A stretch of DNA of 63,744 nt, counting the filler, from Reclinomonas americana ATCC 50394 (lineage: Eukaryota): assembly GCA_048213135.1 (NCBI GenBank). It is 20 parts of 20 records of this genome, joined end to end, with 100 filler letters (N's around TTAATTAATTAA, not from the genome) between each part and the next. Parts side by side here need not be neighbours in the genome. Positions count along the whole stretch, not along the records: positions 18,054 to 21,000 come from AFZH01024431.1; 19 more parts are not named here. One strand, given 5' to 3'. Below, piece after piece: positions 5,470-62,523 of this stretch. A model generated the notes under the pieces. It saw only the letters and a program-made list of their open reading frames with translations. It had not been told where the DNA came from and did not search any database. The translations under genes were made by a program, and so were the position numbers. Each line of letters starts with the position of its first letter. Positions within the stretch are counted from its first letter, which is position 1.

Positions 5470-5602
5470 CTCCCTCTCCCTCTCCCTCTCTCTCTCTCTC
5501 TCTCTTTTTCTCTCTCTCTCTCTCTCTCTCACTACTACTACTACTACTACGTACCTACCTACCTACCTACCTACCGTACCGTAACCGTACCGTAACCGTA
5601 CC
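5470..5602. repeat. (CT)n microsatellite degrading into pyrosequencing flow noise
   Basis: CT tract followed by TAC/TACC/GTAACC cycling. Similar contig ends at 5703-5880, 17798-17953, 18054-18133, 49357-49564 and 62221-62423. Confidence 0.9.
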
Positions 5603-5702
5603 NNNNNNNNNNNNNNNNNNNNNNNNNNNNNNNNNNNNNNNNNNNNTTAATTAATTAANNNNNNNNNNNNNNNNNNNNNNNNNNNNNNNNNNNNNNNNNN
5701 NN
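5603..5702. other. Artificial contig spacer (44 N + TTAATTAATTAA + 44 N); first of 19
   Basis: Same 100-nt design, with stops in all six frames, starts at 5603, 7360, 9392, 11296, 13580, 15158, 17954, 21001, 28228, 35316, 36677, 39329, 42299, 45482, 49565, 52584, 55626, 58376 and 62424. Confidence 0.99.
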
Positions 5703-5827
5703 CGGACGGACGACGTACCGACCCTACCGTACGGTCGGTACGTAAGTAAGGTAAGGTAGGTAGGTAGGTCGGTCGGCGACGTCGTCGTAACGTAACGTAA
5801 CTACACACTCTCCTCCTCCTCCTCCTC

Positions 5828-13579: not shown

Positions 13580-14154
13580 NNNNNNNNNNNNNNNNNNNNN
13601 NNNNNNNNNNNNNNNNNNNNNNNTTAATTAATTAANNNNNNNNNNNNNNNNNNNNNNNNNNNNNNNNNNNNNNNNNNNNTCACCTTGCAACTGTCTGCTT
13701 GTGCCGCCACACAAGTAGGCAGTCGGAGGTCGGAGTGCGCTGTAACAAGCGCACGTTGCGTTGTTCGCGGTAGCGTGTAAGTCTGGTGGTGAAGAGCGTG
13801 CGGCCCACCGGCTTCGGGCGGACGTTGTCGCCGACTTAACGCAACACCGACCCCACTGTGCTCGGGTACCTCGTACTGCCACCACAGTCGAGGGAACCTG
13901 TGCACGGCGCGGGGCAATGTCGAGATCGACCGAGGCTGCAGCACTTTCATGGCGGTGGAGTCTGCAGCTCTCGACTTGCGCCTTTCAGTGAGACATCCGG
14001 CAAAGCACTCGTATTGTGTAGCCGGTTTCGCGGATCCGGAGTTTTCCTCTTTATCTCATCGTCATCTGTCTCCTGCCCGCGGGCACAACACGAGTGTAAA
14101 CCCTTTCTTATGGACGAAGGACGAGCAAATGATTGATTGCTGACGTGACCCAGC

Positions 14155-15257
14155 ATGTCCGAGTCTGCTGTCTTCAACTGTGCAGTGTGTAACCGCCGCA
14201 CCATTGTACTCCGCGGCGGGCTGTCACTTGCGAACGCCCGGGCCATCGGTGTCGATGCGGATGCCGCAGGGCACTGGGTGAAAGCAACCATCATTGAATT
14301 GGCATTGATGGACGACATTGCTCCCGCTGAAGACGCGACTGTACATCATGTGAGGGACTTTCGGGCAGCGGTGTTATACCAACAACAGTTCCGCGACGCA
14401 GCGAGCCGCAACGCAGAGTCGCGCGTTGTCTGGTGTTCGCACTGCTACAACACCTTCATGTCGAAAGTCGACTCGATACGCGAGTGCTCCGCTGGCAACT
14501 GCTCAGTGCTTGTGGCCCCTGCGACAGCTCCGCCCACCCGCCCCCGAGAGTCGTCGAACGGAAAGAGTCGCAGGAGACAGATTGCTGCAGATCGCGGTCG
14601 ACCTTGCGAGCATGACGACGACCGCTGTTTCCGTGCGTTATTGTGTGCGTGCCCCGTCAAATTTAAAGTTGTTGATGTACTCATCGCTCCTTGCTATGAT
14701 GCAGAGACTAATGCGCACACTGCGACGAATGACGCTGGTCGCCTTCTCGTATTCTGCTCCAAGCAGTGTCTGGACTATCACAATCGTCCTCAGCCACCAC
14801 CGCCTCCAGCCCATCCGGCCATTCCAGCAGAGCGGTCGACGACAGCCTTTCGCGCTTCGTTTGCCAAGAAGTTCTCGCCGGAACAAATTCGCCGATTCGT
14901 GCAAACAGCCGGGAACGCGTGTGCTGAGTTCTCGAAGAGTTGTGATCGTGAGATCGTCCGGCTCTCTGACAGTTGCGCTCCAAGACACTATTTGTCCAGA
15001 CGACGCGCGCGCGCGTCTCACACTTGTGTTGTCGATGCAGATCAGAAACCTGGAGACGAGGAAAGGATTGAGTGTCTTCAGGAGATGCTCAAAGCCAGCA
15101 ACGTGCGTTGGCGCGCGGCGTAAACGCATATTGTGTCGTCCGTCTCTCTCTCTCTCTNNNNNNNNNNNNNNNNNNNNNNNNNNNNNNNNNNNNNNNNNNN
15201 NTTAATTAATTAANNNNNNNNNNNNNNNNNNNNNNNNNNNNNNNNNNNNNNNNNNNN

Positions 15258-15289
<32 letters not shown>

Positions 15290-17796
15290 CTCTCACTCAC
15301 TCTCGCTCTCTCACTCTCTCGCTCCCTTGCTCTCGGTCGCGCTCGCTCTCCACCTTCTGCAGCTGTCGACCTTGACTCTGCCGGCCCCACGCTCACCGCA
15401 GCTTATGCGTACCGGGCCGCGTGCAGGTCACACGTGCTCAATTGTACGAAGCTTTTGGATCTCCGGAGCCCAAGCGCGGTCGGAAACGATTATCGATACA
15501 TGATCGTGGCCACCGTATGGTGCAAGCGGCATTGGACCCCGCTGCAGCTGCTGCGGAAGCCGACGCGCGCGCGTCGGACATCGGCGCAATGGCTGTAGTT
15601 CAGCTGTTCCGCGCGGAAGAACGAGAACGGAAACAGAAGGAACGCGCGCTGACCAGCAACCACCGCCTCAAGACCGAGATGCGGCAACTCAAGCGCGACG
15701 CCAATCTCGTCGTCAGGGAGTACAATGCGGTGATAGACGCTGTGCGCAAGAGCGATTACAGGGTCCTCAATGCGCACCAGCTCGCTTTAACTCCTTCAGA
15801 AGGTGAGCGACGACACCACTGTTTTCTTGATCGCCGTGCACCTCACAGTGTTTTGTGTTGTCCATGTTCTTCTTGCTCAGGCGCATTCTTCAAGTGCCAC
15901 ATGGGGCTCAGCGACGCGAAATACAGCAACTTCAGGGGTACGAAACTCGTCGGCGGGCCGTTCCCACCACTCAATCTTATCAAGACGCATGAGAAGGCGA
16001 CAATTGCGAAGATCGGAAGGATAGTGGATGCGACGCTTCCCATTCACCGCTACCAGGTGAAGGGAGAAAGTAGGACGGTCACAGTCGGACATATCCGGCT
16101 CGCGTACCTGCACAGTGGCGGTGTTGCGCCTCCTGTCGGTGGCGATGCTGCAGAGCAAGCGCCCGCTGGGGTGAACGCCGGAGCGGAGTTGCGCAGGTGT
16201 TCGTGGAATCGTTTGTGCGTGTGTTTGTTGCTGACTGCTTGAGTGTGATGATCGCTGCGGTTGTGTGTGATGTAGCCGTGGCGCAGCAGGTGGCAAGTCT
16301 GTTGTTTTCGGGAAGCACCATGTCACCGTCGGCGTGAAAGCTCCGTCACAGAAAGAGCTTCAGGTTCGCGCTGTAGCGGACGTGGAGACTCGATTTTCGC
16401 CGCAGAGAAGCCTGATTCTCCCACTGTGGAGAGTGGAGAACTTTAAACCCCACGTGTCGAACTGTTTAATTCTCCGTGTGACGTCAGATGCCGCTGTGAT
16501 TGCACCGTTGAAGACCAGCGCGATGGCCGGTGAACACGCCATGGACGGCATTTTGCGGATGATGGGTGTGACTTGCCTGGGCGCAGTGACGTACACGCAA
16601 GGAACGGTACACAGTCCATTCCATCTCCCTCTTCTGGCTGTCTATCTGATGAAAGGGGAGTTGTTTGAGTACATTCACGCTGTGAACGGCGTCCTTCCGT
16701 GGCGACTGTGGTTGCAGACATGGCAGAACTCTTGGCTCCGAGCACCGGAGTTCATCAGAAATCTGTACTCTCGTAGTGTGCGTCTGTTTGTGAACGGCGA
16801 CTTGAAGCAACTGATGGCGATGCTGGGAAAGCGACACTGTGTATTCTGCCCGTACTGCCTTGCCCTCCACGTTTTGCGCTTCACGGACCGATCCGGTGGT
16901 GTTGCATTTCACTTCTTCAACCACTTTCGTCGACATCAGTTTGACATACGTGAGGCATTTCGGAGGCCGCATGTGTATCTTGCAGCAGAGTGCTTCGACT
17001 TTGAGCTCGATCTGACGGAGGGTGCTGGTGACCATGTGCTGAAGGAGAAAGACGGTGAACTGGACGAACATTTTCTGAAGTGGGCTGCGTCTTTGCGGGG
17101 TCAACCAGTTGCAGTGACTGCGGGGCGCAACTCGCGTCTTAAAAACGCACAGGAGGCGCTCTATGACGTGAGCCACCCTGCCACTCCAGCCACGACCTTC
17201 TGGTCTTCTTTACGGACCCCCGTCGCCCTCTGTCATGACGATGCGCGTCAGGCTTTCAGTGATGCTAAACTCGAGCTGCACCACTTTGTTCCGGACGTCC
17301 TTCATCTCGATTTGCGAGTGGCGGAGCACGTGCTGGCGGAGGCCGCCAAGCTGTGCGCTGCTCGTCTAGATCTGTTCCGGTCGGAAGAGGCCACCACGCG
17401 GGGAGGTGGACGGGATGCAGTTTGCAAGTACGTCGACTACTTGAACGAGAGATTTCACAATCTGTGTGGAATGCGCCAGTTGGAGTTGCGCGCGACGCCT
17501 TGTGATTGCATGTAGTGTAAGCGCGCTGATGTGTGCTCACTCCCAATTGTTGCGTGAACAGATTTGAGGTCACTGCACCTGCATCAACTGCCGCATCGTC
17601 GTATTCTCGTTGTCCGATCACGGAGGTGAATTTCAGCTCGCTTGCAAGTCACGCACTGCCCAATATGTTGCACAGCAGCAAAGAAGCGGAATTGAAGGTT
17701 CGTCGACTGAAAGATATATCTGCGCTGATAGTGCTAGCCGTGGTAGTTGAGTACACACCTGCTCGGAATACTGGCGCAGAATCGGCCCTGGCCGGG

Positions 17797-17853
<57 letters not shown>

Positions 17854-18089
17854 TACGTACGACGACGACGTGTAGTGTACGTACCGTACGACGTCCGTCC
17901 GTCGGTACCGTACGACGACGACGACCGTACGTTACGAACGACCGACGACGCGANNNNNNNNNNNNNNNNNNNNNNNNNNNNNNNNNNNNNNNNNNNNTTA
18001 ATTAATTAANNNNNNNNNNNNNNNNNNNNNNNNNNNNNNNNNNNNNNNNNNNNACGGACGACGGACGTACGTACGTAGACGACGTAGAC

Positions 18090-18135
<46 letters not shown>

Positions 18136-19583
18136 CTGAGACAGGCGATATTTGTGTTGGTTCGCACACTTTGCTCGCGCATTCTCCTCATAAGCGTGCT
18201 GTGGTGCGCAGACGTTTCTCGAGACAGCTTTTAGTCTCGTGCCAAGCGTGCATACTCTATGCGACGTGACGCTCCGAGGCATCAAATTGATGCGCTCCCT
18301 CCAGGAAACAGCTCGCCACCGTGTTCATGAGCCGTGGACGGAGGATTCGCGACAGGAGGAGCTGGGCATGCTGGACGAGTTTATCAGGCTGCGGGAGACC
18401 TTCTACGAAATCGTCTTTAATGGCGACGTTGAGGATGTGAGGCCAGTCGAATGGATCACAGCAAGCGTTCATATCTTGTGCGTAGCAAGCGAGGATTATC
18501 GCACTTGTTCTCTGTAACCGTGTATTGTGCACTCATATTGTCTCCCCGTGTGCCACATGGCGCACCGCGGCCGCGTGCACTGGTGGTGCAGTTGGGACCA
18601 CTTGCCTCAATTCGCAGTTGATGTGGAGCACGCATTCGCCGTGATCAACTGCGCCCAGTACGGCATCGAAGCGCGGCTGCAGTACTTGCGCCCAGTCGTC
18701 AAACGCGCCCCACATCAAGCTCTCTCCAAGCCGCTGGAGAAAGATTCGGAGGTAGTGCAAGCTGTTTTACATCGGCTCCAAGACGAGCGGTATCGCACGC
18801 TCCACCCATTGTTCTTTCGTGCCTGGCACGGTATGGCAACTGCATCGCAGTGGATTGTCTGCAGCGCTGCTATTGCTGACCTTCTGCGCGTGCAACCGCA
18901 TTCGTGAATTCAGCGGAGGACCGCAAGGTGGTGCTGCGAAGCGTGAAGAGTGGCATGAAGCTGCCAGTCCGCGAACGATCAGTGGGGCTTGCTGCCGGGT
19001 ATCCAGATTCGCAGGCACTGGCAGTCCACGAGCACGATGGCGAACTGCCAGACGGAATGGAAGACCCGGATGGCAATCGCATGATTCTGCCGGTGTTGGA
19101 GAATGCAGTCGTCGCTGACTTTGCTCTTGGTGATGAAGCCGGTGCCGGCGAGGCTGCAGCTGGCAAGAAGCGTGGTGAGAGGACACACTTGCGTGTAATT
19201 GCGCGTGGTTGCTGTCAACTCATTCACGCTTCCTCCTTGCCGTAGGCGGGTTCTCCAATAGTGCGGCGTATTACGTGCTGACCAGTCAGACAATCGCAGC
19301 AAGTAGCGACAGACCGATGAGAGTCGATCGGTATGTCAAGCGCGAAGAGACTATGGCCAGGAACAGGCAGCTGCAGCGCGAAGCAAACCAGGCGGGAGCG
19401 CAGCAACTCGTACTCGCGATCTCTGAACAGGAAGAGGACATCGCAGAAATGGATCTGCTTCAAGAGATGGCGGACGATGCTGATGCGCTCGACGGCGAGG
19501 AATACGGGGAGGGACAGGAGGAAGAGGAAGAAGAGGGAGAGGATGAGGGAGAGGGAGAGGGGAGCATGGCAGTCGATGATTGA
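14155..19583 (+). CDS. RAG1/Transib-like DDE transposase, about 1330 codons, 10 predicted exons spanning three contigs
   Basis: Exons 14155-14947, 15041-15102, 15427-15802, 15881-16196, 16276-17478, 17562-17697, 18212-18477, 18592-18830, 18914-19174, 19246-19583. All introns are GT-AG with consistent phases; total 3990 nt. Motifs: LTPSEGAFFKCHMGLSDAKY..PFPPLNLIK, RVTSD, VNGDLK, FCPYC, PDVLHLDL, ITASVHIFWDHLP, QYGIEARLQYLR. Confidence 0.8.
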
Positions 19584-19643
19584 AGTTTGAATTTCTGCAT
19601 TGATTTCTTGCTTTCGAAAGCAGTACACTACGCCAACGCTGTT

Positions 19644-20667
19644 TCAGTGGTAACGACCGTCGAAATCGCTGAACATTCCCTGGCGCAGCTGGAACTTCGC
19701 AGTGAAGCTGCGCATTCGCGGGTTGTAGATGAACTCAATGTCTTCGTCGAGGTTGATGGCAGCGAACGCGCAGCCGACCAGTCGGCCGTATGCGAACCAC
19801 TTGTCGCCGAAGATGCGCGCAAGAGCAGGGCTAAGGGGGCTAAAGCACGCACACAGGCCACCAACGCCCTCGGTCCACTGGTCGAGGGGAAGCAGCGCAG
19901 CAAACAGGGAGTTCACGGCGCCACGGCTAGTCAACTTGATGGTGACAAATGCAGACTTCGGAGCATACCGCTGGCCAAGACAGCGACGCAAGCACATGAG
20001 GAAGCGCTTGCGAAGCTGGTTCGCCATGTCTGTGGCGTCTGCCCGGTGGAGGCTCTGTGCACACACGAGGCATAGGTTAATTGTGAGGTCACTACCGGTG
20101 TAATCTTCGTGCGTGCGTTCGTCGAGCGCACCAACTCGCGCTCCAGGGCCGCATTCCGCGCCTTTAAAGCCTCCAGCGCTGCTTGCGACGCAGCGTAGCC
20201 AGTGGCTATGTTCGCAAGAACGTGGGAGAGTGACGAGACACATTGGCCGTTGGCGACGCTCGGCTGCGCCGCTGCACTTGCTGAAGAGGCAGACGCATGG
20301 GAAGGACCGCGCTCCGCTGCAGGCCCGTTGGGTTGCTGAGGAGCGCTAGTCACGGCGGCGCCGACGCCAGGAACAGCAGGCTGTGAGAGTGGAGTGATTA
20401 TCATCTAAAATGCACTGGGGTGCATTTGCACACATGCACGATTAATCATCTCACACACACCTTGGCCGCGGCGGTGGGCGCGACGGGAGTAGCTGCTGCT
20501 TTCTGTGACTTCACAGTCGCGGCAGGAGCGCGGCGCGGCGCAGCAGCCGCGGCAACAGCTCGCTTCTTGGCGCGCTCACTGCGACGAGCCGCGAAGAGAC
20601 GCGCACGCGCAGCTTCCCGCGCGGCGTTGGCTCTCAGGGCACTGGCACGCTTAGAGGTGAGGATCAT
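19644..20667 (-). CDS. Unknown protein of about 300 aa (basic Ala/Arg N-terminus, coiled coil, globular C-terminus), convergent with the transposase
   Basis: Predicted exons 20667-20461, 20404-20096 and 20054-19644 (GT-AG, phase 0). Its stop lies 60 nt from the transposase stop. Confidence 0.6.
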
Positions 20668-20850
20668 TGTGCTCTCGGAGAAGTGGGGACGCGAGTGGAT
20701 GAGCGGAAGAGTCCGTTGTCTGTCAGTGCTCAGTCGGCCGCATTGAAAAAATTGGAGGACAGACTCTTTTAACTGTCGGCGGTCGGCTGAATTCGACGAC
20801 AAAGCGTTGTTAAGGGGGGGCACGCAGTCAGAACAAGGCTCGCCAGAGGC

Positions 20851-20930
20851 CACGGTACCCCAAGCAAATAATGAGAAAGAGTGCAGTACCCCACGAGGAT
20901 GAAATTTCGGTTCAACGCGCGCACAGAGTG
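20851..20930 (-). mobile_element. Candidate right terminus of the RAG1/Transib-like element
   Basis: Read inward it begins CACTCTG (heptamer-like), then CGAAATTTCA and two TGGGGTAC repeats, and it abuts microsatellite DNA. No matching left TIR or TSD was found. Confidence 0.25.
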
Positions 20931-20943
20931 AGAGACCGAGAGG

Positions 20944-21000
<57 letters not shown>

Positions 21001-21100
21001 NNNNNNNNNNNNNNNNNNNNNNNNNNNNNNNNNNNNNNNNNNNNTTAATTAATTAANNNNNNNNNNNNNNNNNNNNNNNNNNNNNNNNNNNNNNNNNNNN

Positions 21101-24100
21101 CCCACAATCGTGTACGAGAACGTCTGCGCCGAGTTGCCGTCTGTGGTGGACAGAGTACCCACCACGACATCGGCAGTGGTCGGCGGCGTGTACGTCGTCG
21201 CCGACAGTGCAATATCCGACGGAGGGACGTTGGCTGTGGATCATTCGCAACGCTTCATAAGTCGCCAAACGCAACAACAACTCAATCAAAACTCTCTCGG
21301 TCGTACCTTCGTCAATGATAAGCGTCTTGTCAAAGAACAGCGACCCACTGCCGTTGTCTGTCGATCGCACAATGACCACAAGTCCGCTGCCCGTCTGTCC
21401 AGCCGCGGTGATGCGCAGCTGGTCGCCAGAGATGTTGAACAAGGCCGCATTCGTCCCGCCCACAATCGAGTACGTGTAAGTCTGGCACGAGTTCGCATCC
21501 GTTGTCGATAGCACACCAACAACCATATTTGCGGTGGCCGGCAACGCGTACTGTGTTGCCGACAACGTGATATCCGTGGGCGTGACATTGGCTGCCAGGA
21601 TAGTCGATGAGTGACCAGGCACATGCACAACACAGATCTACAGCACACACCTTCGTTGATCGTGAATATCTTGTCGAAGAACAGCGATCCACTGCCGTTG
21701 TCAGTTGATCGCACAATCACCACCAAGCCAGTTCCATTCTGACCGGCTGTCGTGATGCGCAGCTGCGTGCCAGAGATGTTGAACAGCGCCGCATTCGCTC
21801 CGCCCACAATCGTGTACGTGAATGTTTGACACGAATTGGCGTCTACCGTTGATAGATCTCCCACAACAAGGTTGGCTGCCGTCGGCGGCAAGTACGTCAC
21901 AGCCGAGAGCACAATATCAATTGGTGCAATGTTGACTGGTCAATATTGAAGAACGTAGCAGTGAGTGAAGAAAGCGAGAACAACGAGATCCATGACGTCC
22001 CAGACCTTCGTTGATCGTGAATGTCTTCTCGAAGTACAGTGATCCACTGCCACTGTCCGTCGATCGCACAATCACCACCAAGCCAGTTCCATTCTGGCCG
22101 GCCGTCGTGATGCGCAGCTGCGTGCCAGAGATGTTGAACAGCGCCGCATCGGCACCACCCACAATCGTGTACGTGTACGTCTGAGCCGAGTTGGCATCGG
22201 TTGTCGTCAGACTGCCAATCACGAGATTAGCAGTGGTTGGCGGCGTGTACGTCGTCGCCGACAGTGCAATGTCCGTCGGTGCGACATTCACTAAACAAAA
22301 GAAAACGGGCGAATGAGAAGACACATCTGAGAATGCGCTGCTCTAAGAAAGTACGAACCTTCGTTGACGGTGAATGTTTTGTCAAAGAACAGAGGTGATG
22401 CACCATTGTCTGTCGATCGCACAATCACCACCAAGCCAGTTCCATTCTGTCCGGCCGTGGTGATGCGCAGCTGTGTGCCAGAGATGTTGAACATGGCCGC
22501 ATTGGCTCCGCCCACAATCGTGTACGTGTACGTCTGAGCCGAGTTGGCATCGGTTGTCGTCAGACTGCCAATCACGAGATTGGCAGTGGTTGGCGGCGTG
22601 TACGTCGTCGCCGACAGAGCAATGTCAGTCGGTGCAACATTCACTGATCGATGGAAGAAAGCAAAGGAGTGAGAACATCAGGTGGTATGGAGAACTTGCC
22701 ATATAGGAGGACAGACAAACCTTCGTTGATTGTAAATGTCTTGTCGAAGAACAGTGGCGATGCACTGTTGTCAGTCGATCGCACAATTACCACCAAGCCA
22801 GTTCCATTCTGCCCGGCCGTGGTGATGCGCAGCTGTGTGCCAGAGATGTTGAACATGGTCGCATTGGCTCCGCCCACAATTGTGTACGTGTACGTCTGAG
22901 CCGAGTTGGCATCGGTTGTCGACAAAGCGCCGACCACGACATTGGCGGTGGTCGGTGGTGTGTATGTCGTTGCTGACAGCGCAATATCCGTCGGTGCAAC
23001 ATTCACTGATCGATGGAAGAAGGCAAATGAGTGAGAACATCAGGTGTAATGAAGAACTCGCCATCTGGGAGCACACAGACAGACCCTCGTTGATTGTGAA
23101 TGTCTTGTCGAAGAACAGCGATCCACTGCCACTGTCAGTCGATCGCACAGTCACAGCCAAGCCAGTTCCATTTTGTCCGGCCGTCGTGATGCGCAGCTGA
23201 GCGCCCGAGATGTTGAACATGGCCGCGTTCGCGCCGCCCACAATCGTGTACGTGAATGTCTGAGCCGAGTTGGCATCGGTGGTGGACAGAGCGCCGACCA
23301 CGACATTGGCGGTGGTCGGTGGTGTGTATGTCGTCGCCGACAGTGCAATGTCCGTCGGGGGAACGTTGGCTACAAATGTACGACAAACGATGAGGCCTCT
23401 TTGAACGGTGTGACAACTCGTGAGACTACCATGACCGTACCTTCATCAATGACAAGCGTCTTGTCAAAGAACAGCGACCCGCTGCCACTGTCGGTGGTGC
23501 GCACAATAACCACAAGTCCATTGCCTGTCTGTCCGGCCGCAGTAATGCGCAGCTGGTCGCCCGATATGTTGAACACGGCAGCGTTCGCCCCGCCCACAAT
23601 CGTGTACGTGTACGTCTGGCACGAGTTGGCATCGGTTGTCGAGAGCAATCCGACGACAAAGTTGGCCGTTGACGGTGGTGCATACGTAATCGATGTCAGC
23701 GCAATGTCCGTCGGCGCCACATTCACTGCACGATGAATGCGATTAATTAAGAACGGTAGGTACAGTGGTAATCAAGAAACCGGCAACGGACCCTCATTGA
23801 TCGTGAATGTTTTGTCGAAGAATAGCGACCCACTGCCGCTGTCTGTCGATCGTACAGTCACCACCAAGCCGGTTCCATTCTGCCCAGCTGTCGTGATGCG
23901 CAGCTGAGCGCCAGAGATGTTGAACATGGCCGCATTCGCCCCTCCCACAATCGTGTACGTGAACGACTGCGCCGAGTTGGCATCGGTTGTCGACAGGTTA
24001 CCAATCACGAGGTTGGCGGTGGTCGGTGGCGTGTACGTCGTCGCTGACAGTGCGATGTCCGTCGGTGCGACATTGACTGGACAGAAGGAAACGAGTGAAT

Positions 24101-27100
24101 GGCAAACCACATCTGAGAACACGCTGCTTCAAGATAATACGAACCTTCGTTGATCGTAAATGTCTTGTCGAAGAACAGAGGTGATGCACCGCTATCCGTC
24201 GACCGCACAATTACAAGCAGACCGGTTCCATTCTGTCCGGCCGTCGTGATGCGCAGTTGCGAGCCAGAGATGTTGAACATGGCCGCATTAGCTCCACCGA
24301 CAATCGTGTACGTGAATGTCTGAGAGGAGTTGGCATCAGTCGTCGACAGAGTGCCCACCACGACATTGGCAGTGGTCGGTGGCGCATACGTCGTCGCCGA
24401 CAGTGCGATGTCCGAAGGAGGAAGATTGACTACCCATCGTCAAGAGCGGTGTAAGCTTTGTTGATGCAACAGGAACAACAACGCGTGAAACCAATTGCCA
24501 TACCTTCGTCAATGACAAGGGTCTTGTCAAAGAACAACGACCCACTGCCACTGTCGGTGGTGCGCACAATAACCACCAGTCCGCTGCCCGTCTGCCCGGC
24601 CGCAGTGATGCGCAGCTGGTCGCCAGAGATATTGAACAAGGCCGCATTGGCTCCGCCCACAATCGTGTACGTGTACGTCTGACACGAATTGGCATCGGTT
24701 GTCGACAGGTTTCCCACAACCATGTTGGCAGTCGTCGGCAACGTATACGCCGCAATCGATATCGTGATGTCCGTGGGCGTGACATTGGCTGCAATCGTGT
24801 GTCGATGAGCGGACAAGCGTAAGAACACAACCATGGTCTACAAGTACACACCTTCGTAGACTGTGAAGGTCTTATCAAAGAACAGCGATCCACTGCCGCT
24901 GTCGGTTGATCGCACAATTACCACCAAGCCAGTTCCATTCTGGCCGGCTGTTGTGATGCGCAGCTGCGCGCCAGATATGTTGAACATGGCCGCATTCGCT
25001 CCACCCACAATCGTGTACGTGTAAGTCTGACACGAATTGCCATCCGTGGTTGACAGAGTGCCCACCACGACATTGGCAGTGGTCGGCGGCGCATACGTCA
25101 CCGACGAAAGCACAACGTCCGTCGGCGCAAGGTTCGCTGCACACGACACGCACGTGAGACATATGATGAGTAAAGTCACTTGCATATTGCTTGTGGCAAC
25201 ACACCTTCGTTGATTGTGAATGTCTTGTCGAAGAACAGCGATCCACTGCCGCTGTCAGTCGATCGCACGGTCACTTGATACCCATCACCGATGACACCCG
25301 CTGTTGTGATGCGCAGTTGCGTGCCAGAGATATTGAACATGGCCGCATTCGCTCCACCCACAATCGAGTATGTGAATGTCTGCGCCGAGTTGGCATCGGT
25401 CGTTGACAGGCTACCAATCACGAGGTTGGCAGTGGTTGGTGGCGTGTACGTCGTCGCCGACAGTGCAATGTCCGTCGGTGCGACATTCACTGAACAACAG
25501 AAACCGGGCGAATGAGAAACCGCATCTGAGAACACGCTGCTTCAAGATAATACGTACCTTCGTTGATCGTAAATGTCTTGTCGAAGAACAGAGGTGATGC
25601 ACCGCTGTCCGTCGACCGCACAATCACCACCAAGCCAGTTCCATTCTGACCGGCTGTCGTGATGCGCAGCTGGGCGCCAGAGATGTTGAACATGGAAGCA
25701 TTCGCTCCGCCAACAATCGAGTATGTGAACGACTGGCCCGGGTTGGCGTCTGTCGTGGACAAACTGCCGACCACGACATTGGCAGTGGTCGGCGGCGTGT
25801 ACGTCGTCGCCGACAGCGCAATGTCCGTCGGCGCCACATTCACTGCCACACAACGCATGAGACCAACAAGCACGAACAAGCATGTGCAACGTCATTCAAA
25901 AGACCTTCGTCGACCGTAAATGTTTTGTCGAAGAACAACGTTCCGACGCCGTTGTCCGTCGATCGCACAATCACCACCAATCCACTGCCTGCCTGCCCGG
26001 CTGAGGTGAACCGCAGCTGCGCGCCAGAGATGTTGAACATGGCCGCATTCGCTCCGCCAACAATCGTGTATGTGAACGACTGCGCCGAGTTGGCGTCTGT
26101 TGTCGACAGATTGCCAATCACGAGATTGGCGGTGGTCGGCGGTGTGTACGTTGTCGACGACAGTGCAATATCCGTCGGTGCGACATTCACTGCACCGCAG
26201 CGCATGAGAACTACCATCGCCTGGCAGCGAAGAAACGAAGCACAACAGACCTTCGTTGATCGTGAACGTCTTGTCGAAGAACAACGGCGGTGCACCACTA
26301 TCCGTCGATCGCACAGTCACCACCAAGCCGGTTCCATTCTGACCGGCTGTCGTGATGCGAAGTTGCGCGCCAGAGATGTTGAACATGGCCGCATTCGCTC
26401 CGCCAACAATCGTGTACGTAAATGACTGGCCCGGGTTGGCGTCTGTCGTGGACAGACTGCCGACAACAAGGTTGGCAGTGGTCGGTGGTGTGTAGGTCGT
26501 CGCCGACAGAGCGATATCCGTCGGGGATACATTCACTATCATCCGACGCATGAGACCAACAGGAACAACAAGAAGGTACCACGAAGCACAACAAACCTTG
26601 GTCGATCGTAAATGTCTTGTCGAAGAAAAGTGATCCGCTGCCGCTGTCAGTCGTCCGCACAGTCACCACCAGTCCACTGCTTGTCTGCCCGGCTGAGGTG
26701 AATCGCAGCTGCGCGCCAGAGGTGTTGAACATGGCCGCATTCGCCCCTCCCACAATCGTGTACGTGAACGTCTGCGCCGAGTTGGCATCGGTGGTCGACA
26801 GGTTACCAATCACGAGATTAGCGGTGGTAGGCGGCGTGTACGTTGTCGCCGACAGTGCAATATCCGTTGGTGCAACATTCACTGCGACGAGGCACATGAG
26901 AGCTACGATCGCTAGCGGGCACAAAAACAAAGCAACAAGCAACTGACCTTCGTTGATCGTGAATGTCTTGTCGAAGAACAGCGATCCACTGCCACTGTCA
27001 GTCGATCGCACAATCACCACTAAGCCAGTTCCATTCTGCCCGGCTGTCGTGATGCGCAGCTGCGCGCCAGAGATGTTGAACATGGCCGCATTCGCCCCTC

Positions 27101-28227
27101 CCACAACCGAGTATGTGAATGTCTGCGCCGAGTTGCCGTCTGTGGTGGACAGTGTGCCGACCACGACATTGGCAGTGGTCGGCGGCGTGTACGTTGTCGC
27201 CGACAGTGCAATATCAGACGGAGGGACGTTGGCTGTGGATTATTCGCAACAATTAACCAGTCGCCGAACGCAACAACCCAATGAAATTTTGCTGCCGTAC
27301 CTTCATCGATCGTGAACGTCTTGTCAAAAAACAGCGACCCGCTGCCACTGTCGGTGGTGCGAACGATAACCACCAGTCCACTGCCCGTCTGCCCTGCCGC
27401 AGTGATGCGCAGCTGGTTGCCAGAGATGTTGAACACGGCCGCATTCGCTCCGCCCACAACCGAGTACGTGTACGTCTGACACGAATTCGTGTCAGTCGTT
27501 GACAGCGAACCAACGACCATATTAGCTGTGGACGGCGGCGAGTAAGCGGGCATCGACAGCGTGATGTCCGTGGGCGCGATATTGGCTGCAATTGCAAGTC
27601 GATGAGTGCCCAAGCAGATACACGGCCAAAGGTCTACAAGCACGCACTTTCGTTGATCGTGAACGTCTTGTCGAAGAACAGCGATCCACTGCCGCTGTCA
27701 GTCGTCCGCACAATCACAACCAAGCCGGTTCCATTCTGCCCGGCTGTTGTGATGCGCAGCTGCGCGCCAGAGATGTTGAACATGGCCGCGTCGGCTCCGC
27801 CCACAATCGTGTATGTGAATGTCTGCGCCGAGTTGGCATCGGTCGTTGACAGAGTGCCGACAACAAGGTTGGCGTGGTCGGCGGCGTATACGTCGTCGAC
27901 GACAGCGCAATGTCCGACGGCGCCACATTCACTGCAGCGTAACGCATGAGACCAACAGGCACGACAAGCTGGTAAAACGTTATACAGACCTTCGTTGATT
28001 GTGAATGTCTTATCAAAGAACAGCGATCCACTGCCGTTGTCAGTCGAACGCACAATCACCACCAAGCCTGTTCCATTCTGACCGGCCGTCGTGATGCGCA
28101 ATTGTGCACCAGAGATGTTAAACATGGCCGCATTCGCTCCGCCCACGATTGTGTACGTGAACGACTGGCCCGAGTTGGCATCGGTCGTGGAGAGACTGCC
28201 AATTACGAGGTTTGCAGTTGAAGGAGG
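21101..28227 (-). CDS. Internal part of a giant surface protein with 21 cadherin-like repeats, one per exon
   Basis: 285-nt exons start (low coordinate) at 21307, 21651, 22006, 22359, 22721, 23085, 23441, 23792, 24145, 24504, 24852, 25205, 25558, 25905, 26251, 26597, 26948 and 27301. The exon at 27648 is 284 nt. Partial exons are 21101-21233 and 27990-28227. There are 20 GT-AG phase-1 introns of about 58-79 nt. Consensus NVAPTDIALS..VG.L.TTDAN...YTIVGG..A.FNISG.QLR...VIVRSTD.G....FDKTFTINE. Confidence 0.9.
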
Positions 28228-35478: not shown

Positions 35479-36676
35479 GCACACCAACCATCAGCGCATT
35501 GACGCCGCTGTGGGTGCCTGCCACATCCAACTCGTTCCCAGTGCAACTGGATGGGTCAAACTTGGAGGAGTCACAGTACCTGCAAGTGCGTGTGGATTCA
35601 TCAGCTGTGCCGACGTGGCGAGTGTCGACATCGCGTCTGGAGTTCCTCGCCCCGGCGCGGTCTGTCGGAGGCATAGCCACTGTCGATGTCACATACAATG
35701 GCGTGGACTACTCAGCGACCACGTCGCTGACATATTTGGGTGAGTTCACACACATGCACACACACACTCTCTCACACGCACTCGCACTCTATCATGATGT
35801 GCGTGTCTGGCTGATGGTGCGCTTGCTTGTTGTGTAGCTGCCTCCACGTTGACGGCGGTTGAGCCTGCTGTGGGGCCAGTGGGAACTGTCCGCGTGCGTG
35901 GCACAAATTTCCCCGCGGCATCCTTCGGTACCAAGTGCACGTTTGACAACTGGGAGGCGACGCCAGTATCGATCTCGAGCAGCGAACTCATCTGCAACAC
36001 CACTTCATCGACCAGCAGTTTTTCGACTGTCGGCGTCAACGTGGCCGGCAACTCCATGACACAGCAACGTGGTGGATTCGCGCGGCGTCGTGCGCCATTC
36101 GTGTCGCGGGCGTACCAGACGATGCAGTCGTGGTCAGGAGGGCGTGGTAATGTTGTGCTTTCTGGCGGCGAGTTTCGTAGTGACGGAATAGCTTGTCAGT
36201 ACGGTGCAAGCGGCCGCGGCAGCGCTGCGTTTGTGTCTTCGGTGGTAGCGGTGTGCTCGCCGCCTGAATCAAACGTGCCAGTGTCAGAGACAGTGCGGCT
36301 GTCGACGAACAGCGGCTACAACGTGACGGAGACAGCGGTTCGTGTTCGTAACGTGGACCTGCCGACGACGGTGCAGAATGTAACGCTGCCGGAGGTTGGT
36401 GGATCGACAGTCTCTTTGCAAGTGACGACCGGCAGCGCGAATTCTTTGGCCTACGCATTCGGTGACCGCGACGTGTGGTGTCAGATCGATGGCAGTACGT
36501 TTGTGCGCGGGCGGAGCATGCTGCCGCACAGCAACTTGATTCAGTGCACAGTTCCACGACTGACTGCTGGTAGTCACGGTCTCGCGCTTGCCAGCAGAGC
36601 ATTTACGCAGATGTCGACGGCGGTGGTGTCATTGCAGATCCTGTCCACCAACGTCACCGACCCAGGCACTGTAGCT
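35479..36676 (+). CDS. IPT/TIG-repeat cell-surface protein, internal fragment (exons 35479-35739 and 35838-36676)
   Basis: PTISALTP..LDGSNL..VDVTYNGVDY; TAVEPAVGP..VRGTNF..CTFD..SSSELIC; phase-1 GT-AG intron at 35740-35837. Confidence 0.8.
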
Positions 36677-40962: not shown

Positions 40963-41245
40963 TGTAAACGCGCCGCTTCGCTATCGATACAGAAGCTAAA
41001 ACAACTTTCATTTCCGTCACATCGATATCTTTCCTTCGTACTCGTGATGGGTAGAGCTCGCTGGCCCTCCGGATTGAACAGAGCTATCTCGGGCGTGCCT
41101 CAGATCGACGAGAAGCCCCGATTTCATTGGGTTTTCGAGTGGCCAACCCGCCGGAAATAACACCTAGAGACGTTTACAAACGATCGGTTATCCGTATCTT
41201 CTGCATTTGGAAAATCGCCGCTCGGCGTTCTCTCAGGCGCTCCAA

Positions 41246-42202
41246 ATGGCTCGCGACACCCAAAATCGAGCTTCCCGTCGACCGCAGGGCCGCCTGATCG
41301 GCTATGCACGGGTGTCGACCGACGAGCAGACGACAGAAGCGCAGGAGATCGAACTGCGCCCGGCCGGCTGCGATCTCATCGTCCAGGAGCACGGTTCTGG
41401 CGCATCGCGTGCTCGGCCAGCCCTGACGAAGCTACTGCGGGAGATCGGCGCCGGCGACACGCTCATTGTCGTTCGGCTCGACCGCCTGGCGCGCTCCGTC
41501 AGCCATCTGCTCGACGTGATCGAGGATCTGACGGAGAAGGGCGCCCATTTTCGTTCGCTGCGCGATCCGATCGATACGACGACGCCGCAGGGCATGTTCT
41601 CGCTGCAGGTCCTCGGCGCCGTGGCGCAGCTCGAGCGCGCGCTGATCTCCGAGCGGACCAAGGCCGGCATCAAGGCCGCGAAGGCCAAGGGCCGGCTTTC
41701 CGGCAATCCTGGCATTCGCGAGCGCCGACCAGAGATGCTGGCGAAGATGACCGCGGCGCAAAAGGCAGCCTATGGCGATCGCGTTCAGGCGACGGCGAGC
41801 CAATGGCTGCCGACGGTCAGGCGCATGCGGCCGGATCATAACTGGGACGACGTCGCCCGCGTGCTGAAGCAACGCGGCTTCGACTGGACTCCCGAGCGCC
41901 TGCGCCGCGCCGTCAAATGGCTGGTCAGCGAGCACACGGCCGACCGGACCCTCCTGCGGAAATCTCCTCCGCGCCTCCCGGAGGATCGCCTGGTCACGCT
42001 GGTGGCCGGCATCCACGTATCGAACCCCACCCTGACGCTCCGCGAGATCGCAACCCAGCTCGAACGGCTGCACGAGCGGACGCCGCGCGGCGGCTCGAAA
42101 TGGTCGCCCTCCTCCGTGAAGAACCTGATCGACCGCGCCCGTCGTTCCGGCTTGATCGCCGGTGACGGCAACGCTCCCACAGCCGGCGTAGCTCAGGGGT
42201 AG
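41246..42202 (+). CDS. Serine recombinase (resolvase/invertase) with extended C-terminus
   Basis: LIGYARVSTDEQ, VVRLDRLARS, AQLERALISERTKAG, C-terminal TPRGGSKWSPSSV. Confidence 0.92.
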   Translation: MARDTQNRASRRPQGRLIGYARVSTDEQTTEAQEIELRPAGCDLIVQEHGSGASRARPALTKLLREIGAGDTLIVVRLDRLARSVSHLLDVIEDLTEKGAHFRSLRDPIDTTTPQGMFSLQVLGAVAQLERALISERTKAGIKAAKAKGRLSGNPGIRERRPEMLAKMTAAQKAAYGDRVQATASQWLPTVRRMRPDHNWDDVARVLKQRGFDWTPERLRRAVKWLVSEHTADRTLLRKSPPRLPEDRLVTLVAGIHVSNPTLTLREIATQLERLHERTPRGGSKWSPSSVKNLIDRARRSGLIAGDGNAPTAGVAQG

Positions 42203-42213
42203 GCTGGTCCTCA

Positions 42214-43452
42214 TCACGACCGCGGCTTCTGCAGGCTCTTCAGCAGCGACGCCGAGGCCTGGATGCGGGGTTTCTCGTCCGAAGAGCCGTCCTCGGCCNN
42301 NNNNNNNNNNNNNNNNNNNNNNNNNNNNNNNNNNNNNNNNNNTTAATTAATTAANNNNNNNNNNNNNNNNNNNNNNNNNNNNNNNNNNNNNNNNNNNNCG
42401 TGCTGCTCACCCATGACCTCGCGCGCTTCACGCCAGGCGCTCGGGCTGATGCCGAGCGACGGCCGGGCCAGCTCCGCTGCCGCCAGGAAATCGCGCCAGT
42501 GTCGGATTTCGCCGCCTTGCGCCAGATCCCGCAAGTTCGGGCAGGCATCGAGGACGATGCCAAGAGGCAGTTCCCGCTTCGGCAGGCTCCGCACGTTGTC
42601 GGTTTCCGCAACGATGGCGGCCGCTTCTTCACTTTCCGAAAAGCCGTGTTCAGATTCAGATAGGGGATCTGGATTTGAATTCTGTATGTGGCGCCCAAAA
42701 TGGGACTCATTGCCATCCGGATTCTGAGCTTTCATAAAGGATTCCAGCACGTCACGGATCTGCGTGCAGAGATCTTGCAGATCGGTGCAGATAGCCTCCA
42801 CGAGCTGCCTGGGAGCCGTGCGGGGCAACCGGCCGATGATCGCCTGGTAGGTCTGCTGGACCCGGCCCCAATTGCCCGGAACACGCTCCTCGATGCCAGC
42901 GTCAATCATCTTGACGATGTCCCGGCGCAGCAGCGTGAGCCGTTCCTTCGCGACACGAAAAGCCTTCTTCTCGGCGTGAACGGCCTCCGCCAGGTCTTTG
43001 ATCTCGTCGGCGCGTGCGACGATCGGCGCGAGGTCGAACCCGTAGGCCTGCTCGATCTCCCCTCCCCTCCCCTTCCTGGCGAAGCGCTTGCCGTTCGGGC
43101 TATCCCGGCGAACGATCAGACCGCAATCGACGAGCACCGCGATGTGCCGCCGCAGCGTCGTCGCCGGCATGCCGTTGGCCCGGGCCATCAATTGCTCGTT
43201 CGACGGCCAAACGACGAGCTCGGCGTCGCCCGTGAGCGCGGTTTCCGGATGGAACGTCAGCAGTGCGTTGAGGATCGCAAGCGAGCGATCCGTCGCGCCG
43301 AGGAGCTCCCTCGCCACACGGATGTCCTGGAAGACCTGCCACTTGTGCACGACGGCATCGGGCTTCGCGGCCTTTGCCGTCATCTGAGTTGAAATCTGGC
43401 CGAGCGTCATCGGCCGCCGCCCAAAGGGCGTCGTTGTGATGTGCGAGAACAC
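42214..43452 (-). CDS. repC: Plasmid replication initiator RepC (interrupted by a gap)
   Basis: GTG at 43452; TTPFGRRPMTL, VWPSNEQL, RRDSPNGKRFARK, AYGFDLAP. Probable C-terminus (ASASLLKSLQKPRS*) at 42214-42298 on the preceding contig. Confidence 0.95.
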
Positions 43453-43519
43453 GTTCCTTTACCTTTTGTTAGGCAAAAGAATCCGGCTCGCCAAAACGGC
43501 ACTGCGTTCGACGTGACTC

Positions 43520-43548
43520 TTGACAGCGATTCGCGGAAGTGTGATTCT
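43520..43548 (+). promoter_or_regulatory. ctRNA promoter
   Basis: TTGACA-17 nt-GATTCT, matching the conserved repABC ctRNA promoter. Confidence 0.85.
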
Positions 43549-43554
43549 CAGGCT

Positions 43555-43606
43555 GCTTACACGAGAGAAGGGCTTCCGGAATTCGTTTCGGGGGCCTTTT
43601 TCTTTT
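43555..43606 (+). ncRNA. repABC counter-transcribed RNA (ctRNA)
   Basis: Antisense in the repB-repC intergenic region, after the promoter; hairpin followed by a T-tract. Confidence 0.85.
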
Positions 43607-43611
43607 GCGGG

Positions 43612-44604
43612 TTACACCTGCGTTTTCTCCTGCTGAAGAAACTCTCCATAGAGGGCGTCGAGACGTTCAGCGAGGAATCGCCCGAAACGGGCGGAATCCT
43701 TCGACTTGAACGCGACGGAAAATGTCTTCCCGGTGTCGACCAATTCGGCCGCTAAGGCTTTGTCAGCCGGCTGCCATTTAGCTTTCGCCGGTTTATCGGG
43801 GCTGGCGCGCCGCGGCTTGTCCGCCTTCTTCAATTCTCCGAAGAGCATCTCAAATCGCACTTCGGAGGTCGCCGCCAAAAAAACCGTAGTTTGGCAGACC
43901 TGCGAGAGCGTCGAACGATTTGAAGGCTTCTCGTAAAGCTGCGCAAACTCCAGCCAGCGGTCACGACCAATCGATTTGGCCGGGCCAATGAGCAGGAGTA
44001 GATCCTCTTCAATGCGCCCCGACACCGAGAGCATTCTCGTCAGCATTGGAGCGTCGACCGACAGGGCAGTTTGGACTGTCCCACGATCATGGCCGCGCCC
44101 GATCAGACGCTGAGCGAAAAGCGCACGCTCAATAAAAGTAAGATTCTCGCGAGCGGAGTTTTCTTGGCCCTGCGCGATAACATGCTCTTCGTCAGAGACA
44201 TTCCGGACAACCGCTTTGACCTTTCGGCCAAGCTGCCGCGCTGCTCGCAGCCGCCGATGTCCAAACACCGTTTGGTAGCGCCCGCTGTCGTTCGGATGCG
44301 GGCGAACGAGAATCGGCGTGTCCTGCCCTCGCTCTCTGATGCCGCTTACGAGCTCTTCGAACGCGACATCGTCTTGCGTCAGGCGATCGGAGACAAAAGA
44401 ATCTTCGATTCGATCCGGATCGATCTCTTGAACGACCTCACCGTCGATCGACGCCTCGGCCTGCGCGGCCTTTGCCGCGAGCTCGTTGATCGAGGCCAAC
44501 ATATTCTTGCTGGCACCGCGGGAGGCGTAGCCAGGTGCGGCCGCCCTATCCGATTGGCTTGTATCGACTTCCTTGATTGCCCGGAAAATATCACGGCGCG
44601 CCAT
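43612..44604 (-). CDS. repB: Plasmid partitioning protein RepB (ParB family)
   Basis: GQDTPILVRPHP, FGHRRLRA, QGQENSARENLTFIERA. Confidence 0.95.
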   Translation of the reverse strand: MARRDIFRAIKEVDTSQSDRAAAPGYASRGASKNMLASINELAAKAAQAEASIDGEVVQEIDPDRIEDSFVSDRLTQDDVAFEELVSGIRERGQDTPILVRPHPNDSGRYQTVFGHRRLRAARQLGRKVKAVVRNVSDEEHVIAQGQENSARENLTFIERALFAQRLIGRGHDRGTVQTALSVDAPMLTRMLSVSGRIEEDLLLLIGPAKSIGRDRWLEFAQLYEKPSNRSTLSQVCQTTVFLAATSEVRFEMLFGELKKADKPRRASPDKPAKAKWQPADKALAAELVDTGKTFSVAFKSKDSARFGRFLAERLDALYGEFLQQEKTQV

Positions 44605-44682
44605 ATTGGCACCTCCGAAATGCATTTAAGGTTCTGAGTTTCAATGAGAAAAGCTCGATCTGTACGGCTGACAATTCCGTCA

Positions 44683-45448
44683 TCAGCGTGCCCGTCCCCA
44701 GCTTGTTTCGATGAGAGAAATCACTTCGGAATTAACAGCGTCGAGAGATTCCCGGGCTCGGTCATAGGTCGCCGGCGTGAACGCCGAGCGTTCGACCTCG
44801 TAGAGGGATTGTTTGGTCAGGCCCGCGTCGGAGATTGCCGTGGATTTGACCATAGGGTTCTTCAGCATCTGTCGGGCAAACATGAGTTGCATGAGCCCCA
44901 CCATCTCCTGCTGGGGTACGTCCCCGGGCTCAAAGCGCGTGACGAGATAACGAAACCAGTCGAGCGAGACTTTCGCACCGGCGTTCTCGATGCTCTTCAG
45001 AATATCGCCGAGCATGAGCAGGAACTGACCCATGGACATGATATCGAGCATTTGCGGGTGCACAGTGATGAGAACCGACGTCGCAGCAGCTAGAGCAGTT
45101 AGGGTGAGGTACCCGAGTTGTGGGGGGCAATCGACCACCACGACGTCGTACTGATCATCGACTTCTTCCAGCGCCGCCCCCACACGCGTAAAGAACGTGC
45201 GGCCAGCAGTCGGATCCTTTGCCCGCATCGCGATCGGCGTTTCGTACTCGTATTCCTGGAGTTCCAAGTTCGCCGGCACAATGTCGAGGGCAGGGAAGTT
45301 CGTTTTCTGAATGACCTCTGTTAGCGGCTTGCGCTCGCTGTCGTAGCGCAAGGATTCATAGAAGGAGAGATTTTGGTCGATCTCCGGCTGAATCCCGAAA
45401 AGGCGTTAGCGAGGCCTGGGGATCGAGATCGACGGCGAGTACCCGATA
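44683..45448 (-). CDS. repA: Plasmid partitioning ATPase RepA (ParA family), 5' truncated
   Basis: VVDCPPQLGYLT, TVHPQMLDIMSM, KSTAISDAGLTKQSLYE; upstream of repB and repC. Confidence 0.95.
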
Positions 45449-45481
45449 CGTATAACGTTCGTATAGCATACATTATACGAA
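45449..45481. other. 454 paired-end (loxP-containing) linker remnant
   Basis: CGTATAACGTTCGTATAGCATACATTATACGAA at a contig end; it cuts repA off mid-gene. Confidence 0.9.
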
Positions 45482-62308: not shown

Positions 62309-62523
62309 TAGTAGTAGTAGGTAGGAGGAGGAGAGAGAGAGAGAGTAGAGAGAGAGAGAGGAGGTAGGTAGGTAGGGTAGGGTTACGGTTACGGTTACGG
62401 TTACGGTTCGGTTCGGTTACGGTNNNNNNNNNNNNNNNNNNNNNNNNNNNNNNNNNNNNNNNNNNNNTTAATTAATTAANNNNNNNNNNNNNNNNNNNNN
62501 NNNNNNNNNNNNNNNNNNNNNNN

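Follow-up and report, generated by a model that had tools for sequence, protein, structure and literature searches.

An uncharacterised coiled-coil protein gene lies tail to tail with a transposase-like gene of Reclinomonas americana: transposon partner or mere neighbour?

Introduction

When a gene stands tail to tail with a gene that resembles RAG1, is it a partner of that gene in the way that RAG2 is, or does it only happen to be placed there? This question is raised by a stretch of 63,744 bases from Reclinomonas americana ATCC 50394 (the whole stretch analyzed here is called the window), in which a minus-strand gene, which we call the partner gene, converges with a transposase-like gene, which we call the neighbour. 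The same convergent layout is known from ProtoRAG and from vertebrate RAG1-RAG2 (PMC9435367; available part of PMC10462144). The initial annotation of this DNA proposed that the partner is not RAG2-like, and that the pair is a two-gene RAG1-like transposon with an independently captured, unrelated accessory protein. The first proposal was confirmed by our analysis. As for the second, none of the tests that we ran gave support to the idea that the partner and the neighbour move or work together, and we give about an even chance to the reading that the partner is just a lineage-restricted gene of the ordinary kind, with no tie to the transposase-like gene beyond its location next to it.

Results

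Structure of the partner gene

The partner gene is located on the minus strand of a segment of 2,947 bp (18054-21000). It consists of three exons with 300 codons in all, every exon is in phase 0, and both introns are bounded by GT..AG. Exon 1 (20461..20667, 69 codons) starts at an inferred ATG at 20667 and encodes a strongly basic sequence (27 Ala, 11 Arg and 6 Lys, that is, 44 of 69 residues; isoelectric point 12), which is not conserved in the relatives described below. Intron 1 (20381..20460, 80 nucleotides [nt], GTGTGT..CACAG) contains in-frame stops. Exon 2 (20096..20380, 95 codons) encodes a low-complexity linker rich in Ala, Ser and Pro and, at its end, a coiled-coil-like stretch, YAASQAALEALKARNAALERELV, of about three heptads, in which the best register places L, L, N, L and L at the a/d positions. 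Intron 2 (20055..20095, 41 nt, GTAGTG..CACAG) is predicted because it is required for the in-frame joining of exon 2 to exon 3, and it is shorter than the five other modelled introns (71-83 nt). Exons 1 and 2 and this 41-nt intron were predicted from the open reading frame (ORF) and splice-site logic. Exon 3 (19644..20054, 136 codons followed by TGA) encodes a conserved C-terminal domain of an unnamed family, which is predicted to be of the alpha/beta type.

The stop codon of the neighbour is at 19581-19583, so that 60 nt (19584..19643) separate the two genes, which converge stop to stop. In the middle of this gap there is a perfect palindrome of 14 nt, TGCTTTCGAAAGCA (19609-19622), which may serve both genes as a 3'-end signal or be due to chance.

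The description given in the initial annotation, namely a three-exon minus-strand gene whose end is 60 nt away from that of the neighbour, with a basic Ala/Arg-rich N-terminus, a low-complexity linker and a coiled coil, agrees with this model in each point. A globular C-terminal domain of about 135 residues was also claimed, and the predicted structure of exon 3, which appears as a single alpha/beta domain, is consistent with that claim.

Relatives and predicted fold of the partner protein

A full HMMER pass with the 136 residues of exon 3 against 1,835,955,588 representatives gave three matches at E <= 0.001. These were P0001 (153 residues, E = 2.9e-9), P0002 (307 residues, E = 1.1e-5) and P0003 (104 residues, E = 6.0e-5). 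The relatives are 27-31% identical to the partner, they are unnamed ("hypothetical protein" or no name at all), and they come from metagenome or run assemblies. The family alignment has 18 invariant columns, including those of the motifs LFA..LPL..W and F.LRQ. P0002, which is encoded on a 2.4-kb contig, has the same architecture as the partner. That is, its domain is placed C-terminally (residues 173-297; 30% pairwise identity with the partner domain over 125 residues) and is preceded by a heptad-like stretch. The N-terminal halves of the two proteins could not be aligned, and exon 2 has no sequence similarity to P0002.

The 90% clusters of the three relatives have 2, 1 and 1 members, located on 1-3 contigs each; the contigs of P0001/P0004 are 13.2 kb and 6.5 kb long. 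Because only three matches were obtained among 1.84 billion representatives, and because their clusters are so small, the family shows the pattern of a low-copy gene and not that of a proliferating element. When metagenome, genome and viral contigs were scanned with the family alignment for the loci of relatives, 90, 65 and 32 pattern matches, respectively, were obtained, and none of them was confirmed.

Pfam gave no match for any of the three partner exons or for the relatives, and the sequences of the PDB gave no match to the partner domain, either by single sequence or by profile. AlphaFold2 (AF2), supplied with an alignment of five sequences, predicted for exon 3 one alpha/beta domain of three helices and seven strands. 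The best model had a predicted local distance difference test score (pLDDT) of 80.5 and a predicted template modelling score of 0.75, and the fold is provisional because the five models disagree (pLDDT 39.5-80.5). With the model of the domain as query, Foldseek returned nothing from the PDB or BFVD at E <= 0.001. In an exhaustive VIA-align search of 48,161 chains the highest Z was 5.0, for small archaeal-virus proteins, which is under the noise guide of 7-8. In the ESM Atlas, P0001 was near only to unnamed bacterial clusters (0.90-0.91). As far as can be judged from sequence comparison, the partner is a conserved protein that belongs to no known family, and its own family is unnamed and very sparsely distributed.

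Comparison of the partner with RAG2

RAG2 and RAG2L proteins have a six-bladed kelch-type beta-propeller of about 350 residues and a C-terminal PHD finger whose zinc ligands are Cys and His. The partner gave no Pfam Kelch match, and its sole folded part is the 136-residue domain, the rest being of low complexity. It also gave no Pfam PHD match, and none of the 18 invariant columns is Cys or His. Since the protein has no propeller, no PHD finger and no conserved Cys or His, we rejected the partner as a RAG2-like protein, as the initial annotation had already done from the lack of visible kelch repeats and PHD finger. No kelch, PHD or RAG2 match was found elsewhere in the window among the ORFs scanned, that is, 96 of the 215 stop-to-stop ORFs of at least 110 residues (ORFs that had been scanned before and some overlapping frames were left out) and 34 ORFs scanned separately.

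Gene model of the transposase-like neighbour

The 3' part of the neighbour (18194..19583, plus strand) is located on the same contig as the partner. It consists of a frame that is open at 18194-18513, with a provisional 5' limit, and exons at 18592-18830, 18914-19174 and 19246-19583. The three introns between them are of the GT-AG type and are 78, 83 and 71 nt long, and the 385 codons end with an acidic tail and a single terminal stop. The central part (15376..17512, plus strand) is located on another contig (15258-17953), where 15376-16196 and 16276-17512 are joined across a 79-nt GT-AG intron to give 686 open codons. The introns of the neighbour hold long microsatellites. The G+C content at the third codon position (GC3) is 0.59-0.74 in the partner and the neighbour and 0.54-0.67 in the other eukaryote-like ORFs of the window, values that we regard as similar.

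On the contig before the transposase-like core there is a plus-strand ORF of 324 codons (14149-15120) with several CxxC pairs (CAVC, CSHC and FCSKQC..H), for which no Pfam or PDB match was obtained. This ORF may be the N-terminal zinc-finger exon of the neighbour, or it may be a separate gene.

The window is not one stretch of the genome. It consists of 20 segments of 1.2-7.1 kb, joined by identical artificial spacers of N44-TTAATTAATTAA-N44, and the transposase of the initial annotation was stitched over three of these segments (13680-15157, 15258-17953 and 18054-21000). The contig of the partner carries only the last four exons of the neighbour. As the window strings together contigs that are unrelated, some of them bacterial, any gene or element that crosses a spacer is an inference and not contiguous DNA. 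At both junctions between these three segments, matching low-complexity sequence is present on each side ((TC)n in one case, and ACG-rich sequence next to (GA)n in the other), and such a match is seen at only 4 of the 19 junctions. Because each junction has matching low-complexity sequence on its two sides, the three segments are plausibly adjacent in the genome, as pieces of one scaffold that was broken in microsatellites.

Resemblance of the neighbour to RAG1 and Transib

In the ESM Atlas, the named clusters nearest to the neighbour were those of RAG1 (RAG1_RNase_H, RAG1_ZnC2 and RAG1_ZnH2; score 0.93), followed by Transposase_21 and Plavaka, and nine of the ten best named matches share one family. 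By the calibration of the tool this result is weak, the recognition value being 1904, below 2300, and the number of shared features 154, below the 170 typical of true family members. Such neighbours are a lead and not an alignment, and shuffled proteins reach a first match of 0.9 in 4-10 of 100 cases.

Transib belongs to the clade of Asp-Asp-Glu (DDE) transposons called CMCT (CACTA/Mirage/Chapaev/Transib), which comprises EnSpm/CACTA, Mirage, Chapaev, Transib, Plavaka, ESTA as well as Lanisha according to the available parts of PMC12730594 and PMC1131882. We read candidate motifs of this clade from the ORF at 16271-17512, namely D73, D177 and CVFCPYC at 190-196. The spacing between D73 and D177 is 104 residues, compared with 108 between residues 603 and 711 of RAG1 (available part of PMC1131882). 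A C(2)C motif, as defined for the clade in the available part of PMC12730594, is present as CVFC at 190 and CPYC at 193, that is, 13-19 residues past D177. His pairs follow straight after it (HFFNH at 214 and HFRRH at 218, spanning 214-222), and they are candidate equivalents of the motif of the clade. The candidate for the third catalytic residue is the Glu of ..FAVDVEH.. on the segment at 18054-21000 (DVE at 117-119 of the exons there), and an H-x2-C is present at 93-96, 23 residues before D-V-E-H. The three candidate DDE residues, read from the sequence, thus span two contigs, and the distance from D to E is long.

All searches based on alignment were negative. Pfam, including its RAG1 models, gave no transposase match for seven ORFs at E <= 1 or for six sub-pieces at E <= 10, and of 16 ORFs or pieces of the neighbour none matched a transposase family. 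When four ORFs of the neighbour were run with phmmer against the PDB, neither RAG1 nor Transib appeared among the chains at E <= 10, and the best E-values (0.12-4.5) were those of unrelated proteins. That is, no significant similarity to the RAG1/Transib catalytic core was detected by either method. For the ORF at 16271-17512, no homologue was obtained in a search of 5.8 billion clusters (near, longer and shorter length classes), in scans of metagenome, genome and viral contigs, or by tblastn against plasmids, and an AF2 model made without an alignment had a pLDDT of 34, too low for judging whether the RNase H fold that bears the DDE triad in this clade is present.

The claim of the initial annotation that the neighbour is RAG1-like is therefore favoured by the ESM Atlas neighbours, a weak positive, and by the order D..D-CxxC, and every alignment-based test counts against it. 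We treat the likeness to RAG1 as a lead. In our estimation it is fairly probable that the neighbour is a transposase of the CMCT clade, and we rate lower the more specific assignment to RAG1/Transib.

Signs of a mobile element

Transposons of the RAGL/ProtoRAG type have, around both genes, terminal inverted repeats with CAC ends like those of recombination signal sequences, a 5-bp target-site duplication, and multiple or polymorphic copies. A search for inverted repeats in 13680-21000 gave spacers and microsatellites only, and since the contig of the partner ends 333 nt upstream of its ATG, the ends of an element could lie outside. The region upstream of the first ORF and that upstream of the partner had nothing in common in a short-word comparison. 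Elsewhere in the window, no sequence of the three contigs is repeated and all ORFs are present once only. Heptamers of the type CACWRTG, which is that of recombination signal sequences and Transib, were observed 54 times against an expectation of 51.7, that is, at the level of chance. The 13-bp end element of AanRAGL, the RAGL element of Aureococcus anophagefferens, was matched only by CA-repeat look-alikes with two or three mismatches. No relevant report was found in a literature search for protist Transib elements that carry accessory ORFs.

Other features of the window

The spacer at 17954..18053 separates the two contigs of the neighbour that were described above, and the contig ends on both sides of it are ACG-rich low-complexity sequence adjoining (GA)n. 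The spacer at 21001..21100 closes the contig of the partner, which ends in (GT)n. Further examples of joins between contigs are the spacers at 5603-5702 and 15158-15257. An ACCGTA or ACG-rich satellite was found, on either strand, at several ends of eukaryote-like contigs (5563-5602, 5703-5742, 17914-17953, 18054-18090 and 62384-62423), and it seems to be a frequent cause of breaks in the assembly.

Some segments are bacterial, with a GC content of 64-66%. They carry repABC-type plasmid genes (RepC, RepB/ParB and ParA; 42400-45405), a resolvase (41168-42199), an alkaline phosphatase (53238-55031) and a protein of the metallo-beta-lactamase fold (57076-58185). The plasmid-like contig terminates in ATAACGTTCGTATAGCATACATTATACGAA (45452-45481), which we presume to resemble the loxP-type site of some paired-end library linkers and which may be a library artefact.

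The remaining segments are eukaryote-like, with microsatellites and short GT-AG introns. On the minus strand of 21101-28227, units of about 350 nt are repeated in a long array. Each unit encodes a module of about 95 residues (NVAPTDIALSATTYTPPTTAN...FDKTFTINEG), and short non-coding stretches lie between the units. Pfam gave only sub-threshold matches for this array (Cadherin and beta-trefoil), which has the appearance of a giant surface protein built from repeated domains. IPT/TIG domains are present in two plus-strand ORFs that are open to the contig ends (36779-39328, 850 residues; 35798-36676, 293 residues), which probably belong to a single large surface protein that is divided between two contigs. 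Two ORFs of 389 residues (47898-49064 and 50023-51189) were considered as a possible repeat and rejected as unrelated, because only 35 of 389 positions are identical. Rfam and tRNA scans of the window gave no matches.

Discussion

The reading that we favour is as follows. The partner would be an ordinary nuclear gene of an intron-bearing protist, encoding a 300-residue protein of a sparse and unnamed family. The N-terminus of this protein would be disordered and basic, a short coiled coil resembling a leucine zipper would probably make it a dimer, and the C-terminal alpha/beta domain of about 130 residues would probably bind a ligand or a binding partner. The gene would lie tail to tail, at a distance of 60 nt, with the final exon of a long gene that has multiple introns and whose probable origin is a DDE transposase of the CMCT clade, to which RAG1 is related. 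The adjacency would then reflect close gene packing only, and the partner would be neither a subunit nor the cargo of a mobile element.

Several results are consistent with this reading. The partner family is conserved and looks low-copy, the partner architecture is shared by P0002, and no homologue of the neighbour was obtained in the cluster search or in the three contig collections. No terminal inverted repeats (TIRs), dispersed repeat or second copy were found in the window, and the heptamers are at chance level. The short GT-AG introns of both genes, the microsatellites that fill the introns of the neighbour and the matching GC3 fit a long residence in the host.

On the other hand, some points weigh against it. 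Because the two stop codons are only 60 nt apart, a transposon end downstream of the neighbour must either fit into this gap or lie beyond the partner, and a neighbour that is still mobile would probably have the partner within its element. The two genes converge in the same way as those of ProtoRAG and vertebrate RAG1-RAG2 (PMC9435367). The word-index search probably misses even relatives that are 27-31% identical, and the negative homology results for the neighbour therefore say little about co-occurrence of the two genes. From the small clusters, copy number can be judged only weakly, and the true ends of an element may lie outside the 2.9-kb contig.

Among the other explanations, the one that survives best is that the neighbour is no transposase at all, and that two unrelated lineage-specific genes are convergent by accident, the resemblance to RAG1 being due to chance. 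We regard this as somewhat unlikely. The failure of Pfam even at E <= 10 for six pieces, the unrelated proteins at the top of the PDB search, the weak ESM Atlas result together with the behaviour of shuffled proteins, and the useless AF2 model all fit this explanation. However, the ESM Atlas list consists mostly of RAG1, followed by Transposase_21 and Plavaka, and not of random families. The transposase call had also been reached independently, from motifs, in the initial annotation, and the C(2)C pair 13-19 residues after the second Asp, with candidate His pairs, fits a published hallmark of the clade (available part of PMC12730594).

A less likely explanation is that both genes are carried by a single cut-and-paste transposon, composed of a very divergent RAG1/Transib-like transposase and a captured, unrelated accessory protein that replaces RAG2, for example a dimeric DNA- or chromatin-binding cofactor. 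It would account for the two convergent genes on one contig, and it agrees with the ESM Atlas lead to the RAG1 clusters and with the D..D-C(2)C order and spacing. In addition, some CMCT elements are known to carry captured extra genes such as TET/JBP (available part of PMC12730594). Nevertheless, we consider it decidedly unlikely, for neither TIRs nor a target-site duplication (TSD), nor a second or co-occurring copy, was found, the partner family looks low-copy, and the transposase identity of the neighbour is unproven by the Pfam, PDB and homology searches. The several host-like, microsatellite-filled introns of the pair also differ from the single-exon RAGL genes published for a protist (PMC9435367). 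The specific claim that a very divergent protist transposase of the RAG1/Transib clade, in an event separate from the acquisition of RAG2, took on as its convergently encoded partner an unrelated dimeric coiled-coil protein with an alpha/beta domain not seen before, and that the two genes are, or were in the past, mobile as a single element, seems to us quite improbable.

Finally, a domesticated and immobile module, in which the coiled-coil protein works jointly with a host protein of transposase origin and the two are co-regulated through overlapping 3' ends after the loss of the transposon ends, is very improbable in our view: the genes are intact over all modelled stretches (686 + 385 open codons and 300 codons), the introns and GC3 are host-like, TIRs are absent from the region searched and a 14-nt palindrome lies within the gap, but such a palindrome is expected a few times per 64 kb by chance (a rough estimate, not a computed one), no functional tie between the two genes is seen, and no homologue of the neighbour was found that would show conservation under selection.

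If the pair were one unit, RAG1-type transposases could adopt accessory subunits other than RAG2. The lineage from which V(D)J recombination arose would then have captured a partner a second time, independently, and this would bear on how and why RAG2 was acquired. On present evidence, we think that the partner is an uncharacterised, lineage-restricted protein encoded beside a transposase-like gene.

This view can be compared with the known systems. With RAG2 and RAG2L of vertebrates, ProtoRAG and other RAGL elements, the partner shares its position only, as a second gene convergent with and near to a RAG1-like gene. It is a protein of 300 residues with a 136-residue alpha/beta domain after a disordered coiled-coil half, and no similarity in sequence or fold was found. 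RAGL transposons have the order TSD-TIR-RAG1L-RAG2L-TIR-TSD with recognisable RAG1L and RAG2L, and in AanRAGL the genes are single-exon and co-directional (PMC9435367). The present locus differs from them in that no TIR or TSD, no RAG2L and no Pfam RAG1 match were found and that several introns are present, whereas it resembles them in having two adjacent genes, and that elements of this kind can live in protists is shown by AanRAGL. From the members of the CMCT clade, the neighbour differs in that no significant match to any of them was obtained with Pfam or PDB phmmer, that no 5'-CA..TG-3' termini or TSD of 2-5 bp were identified, and that its His pair abuts the C(2)C motif and is not near the Glu, where H-x2-C stands instead. 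It resembles them in the candidate D, D and E residues, in the C(2)C motif soon after the second Asp with His pairs following, and in the long distance from D to E.

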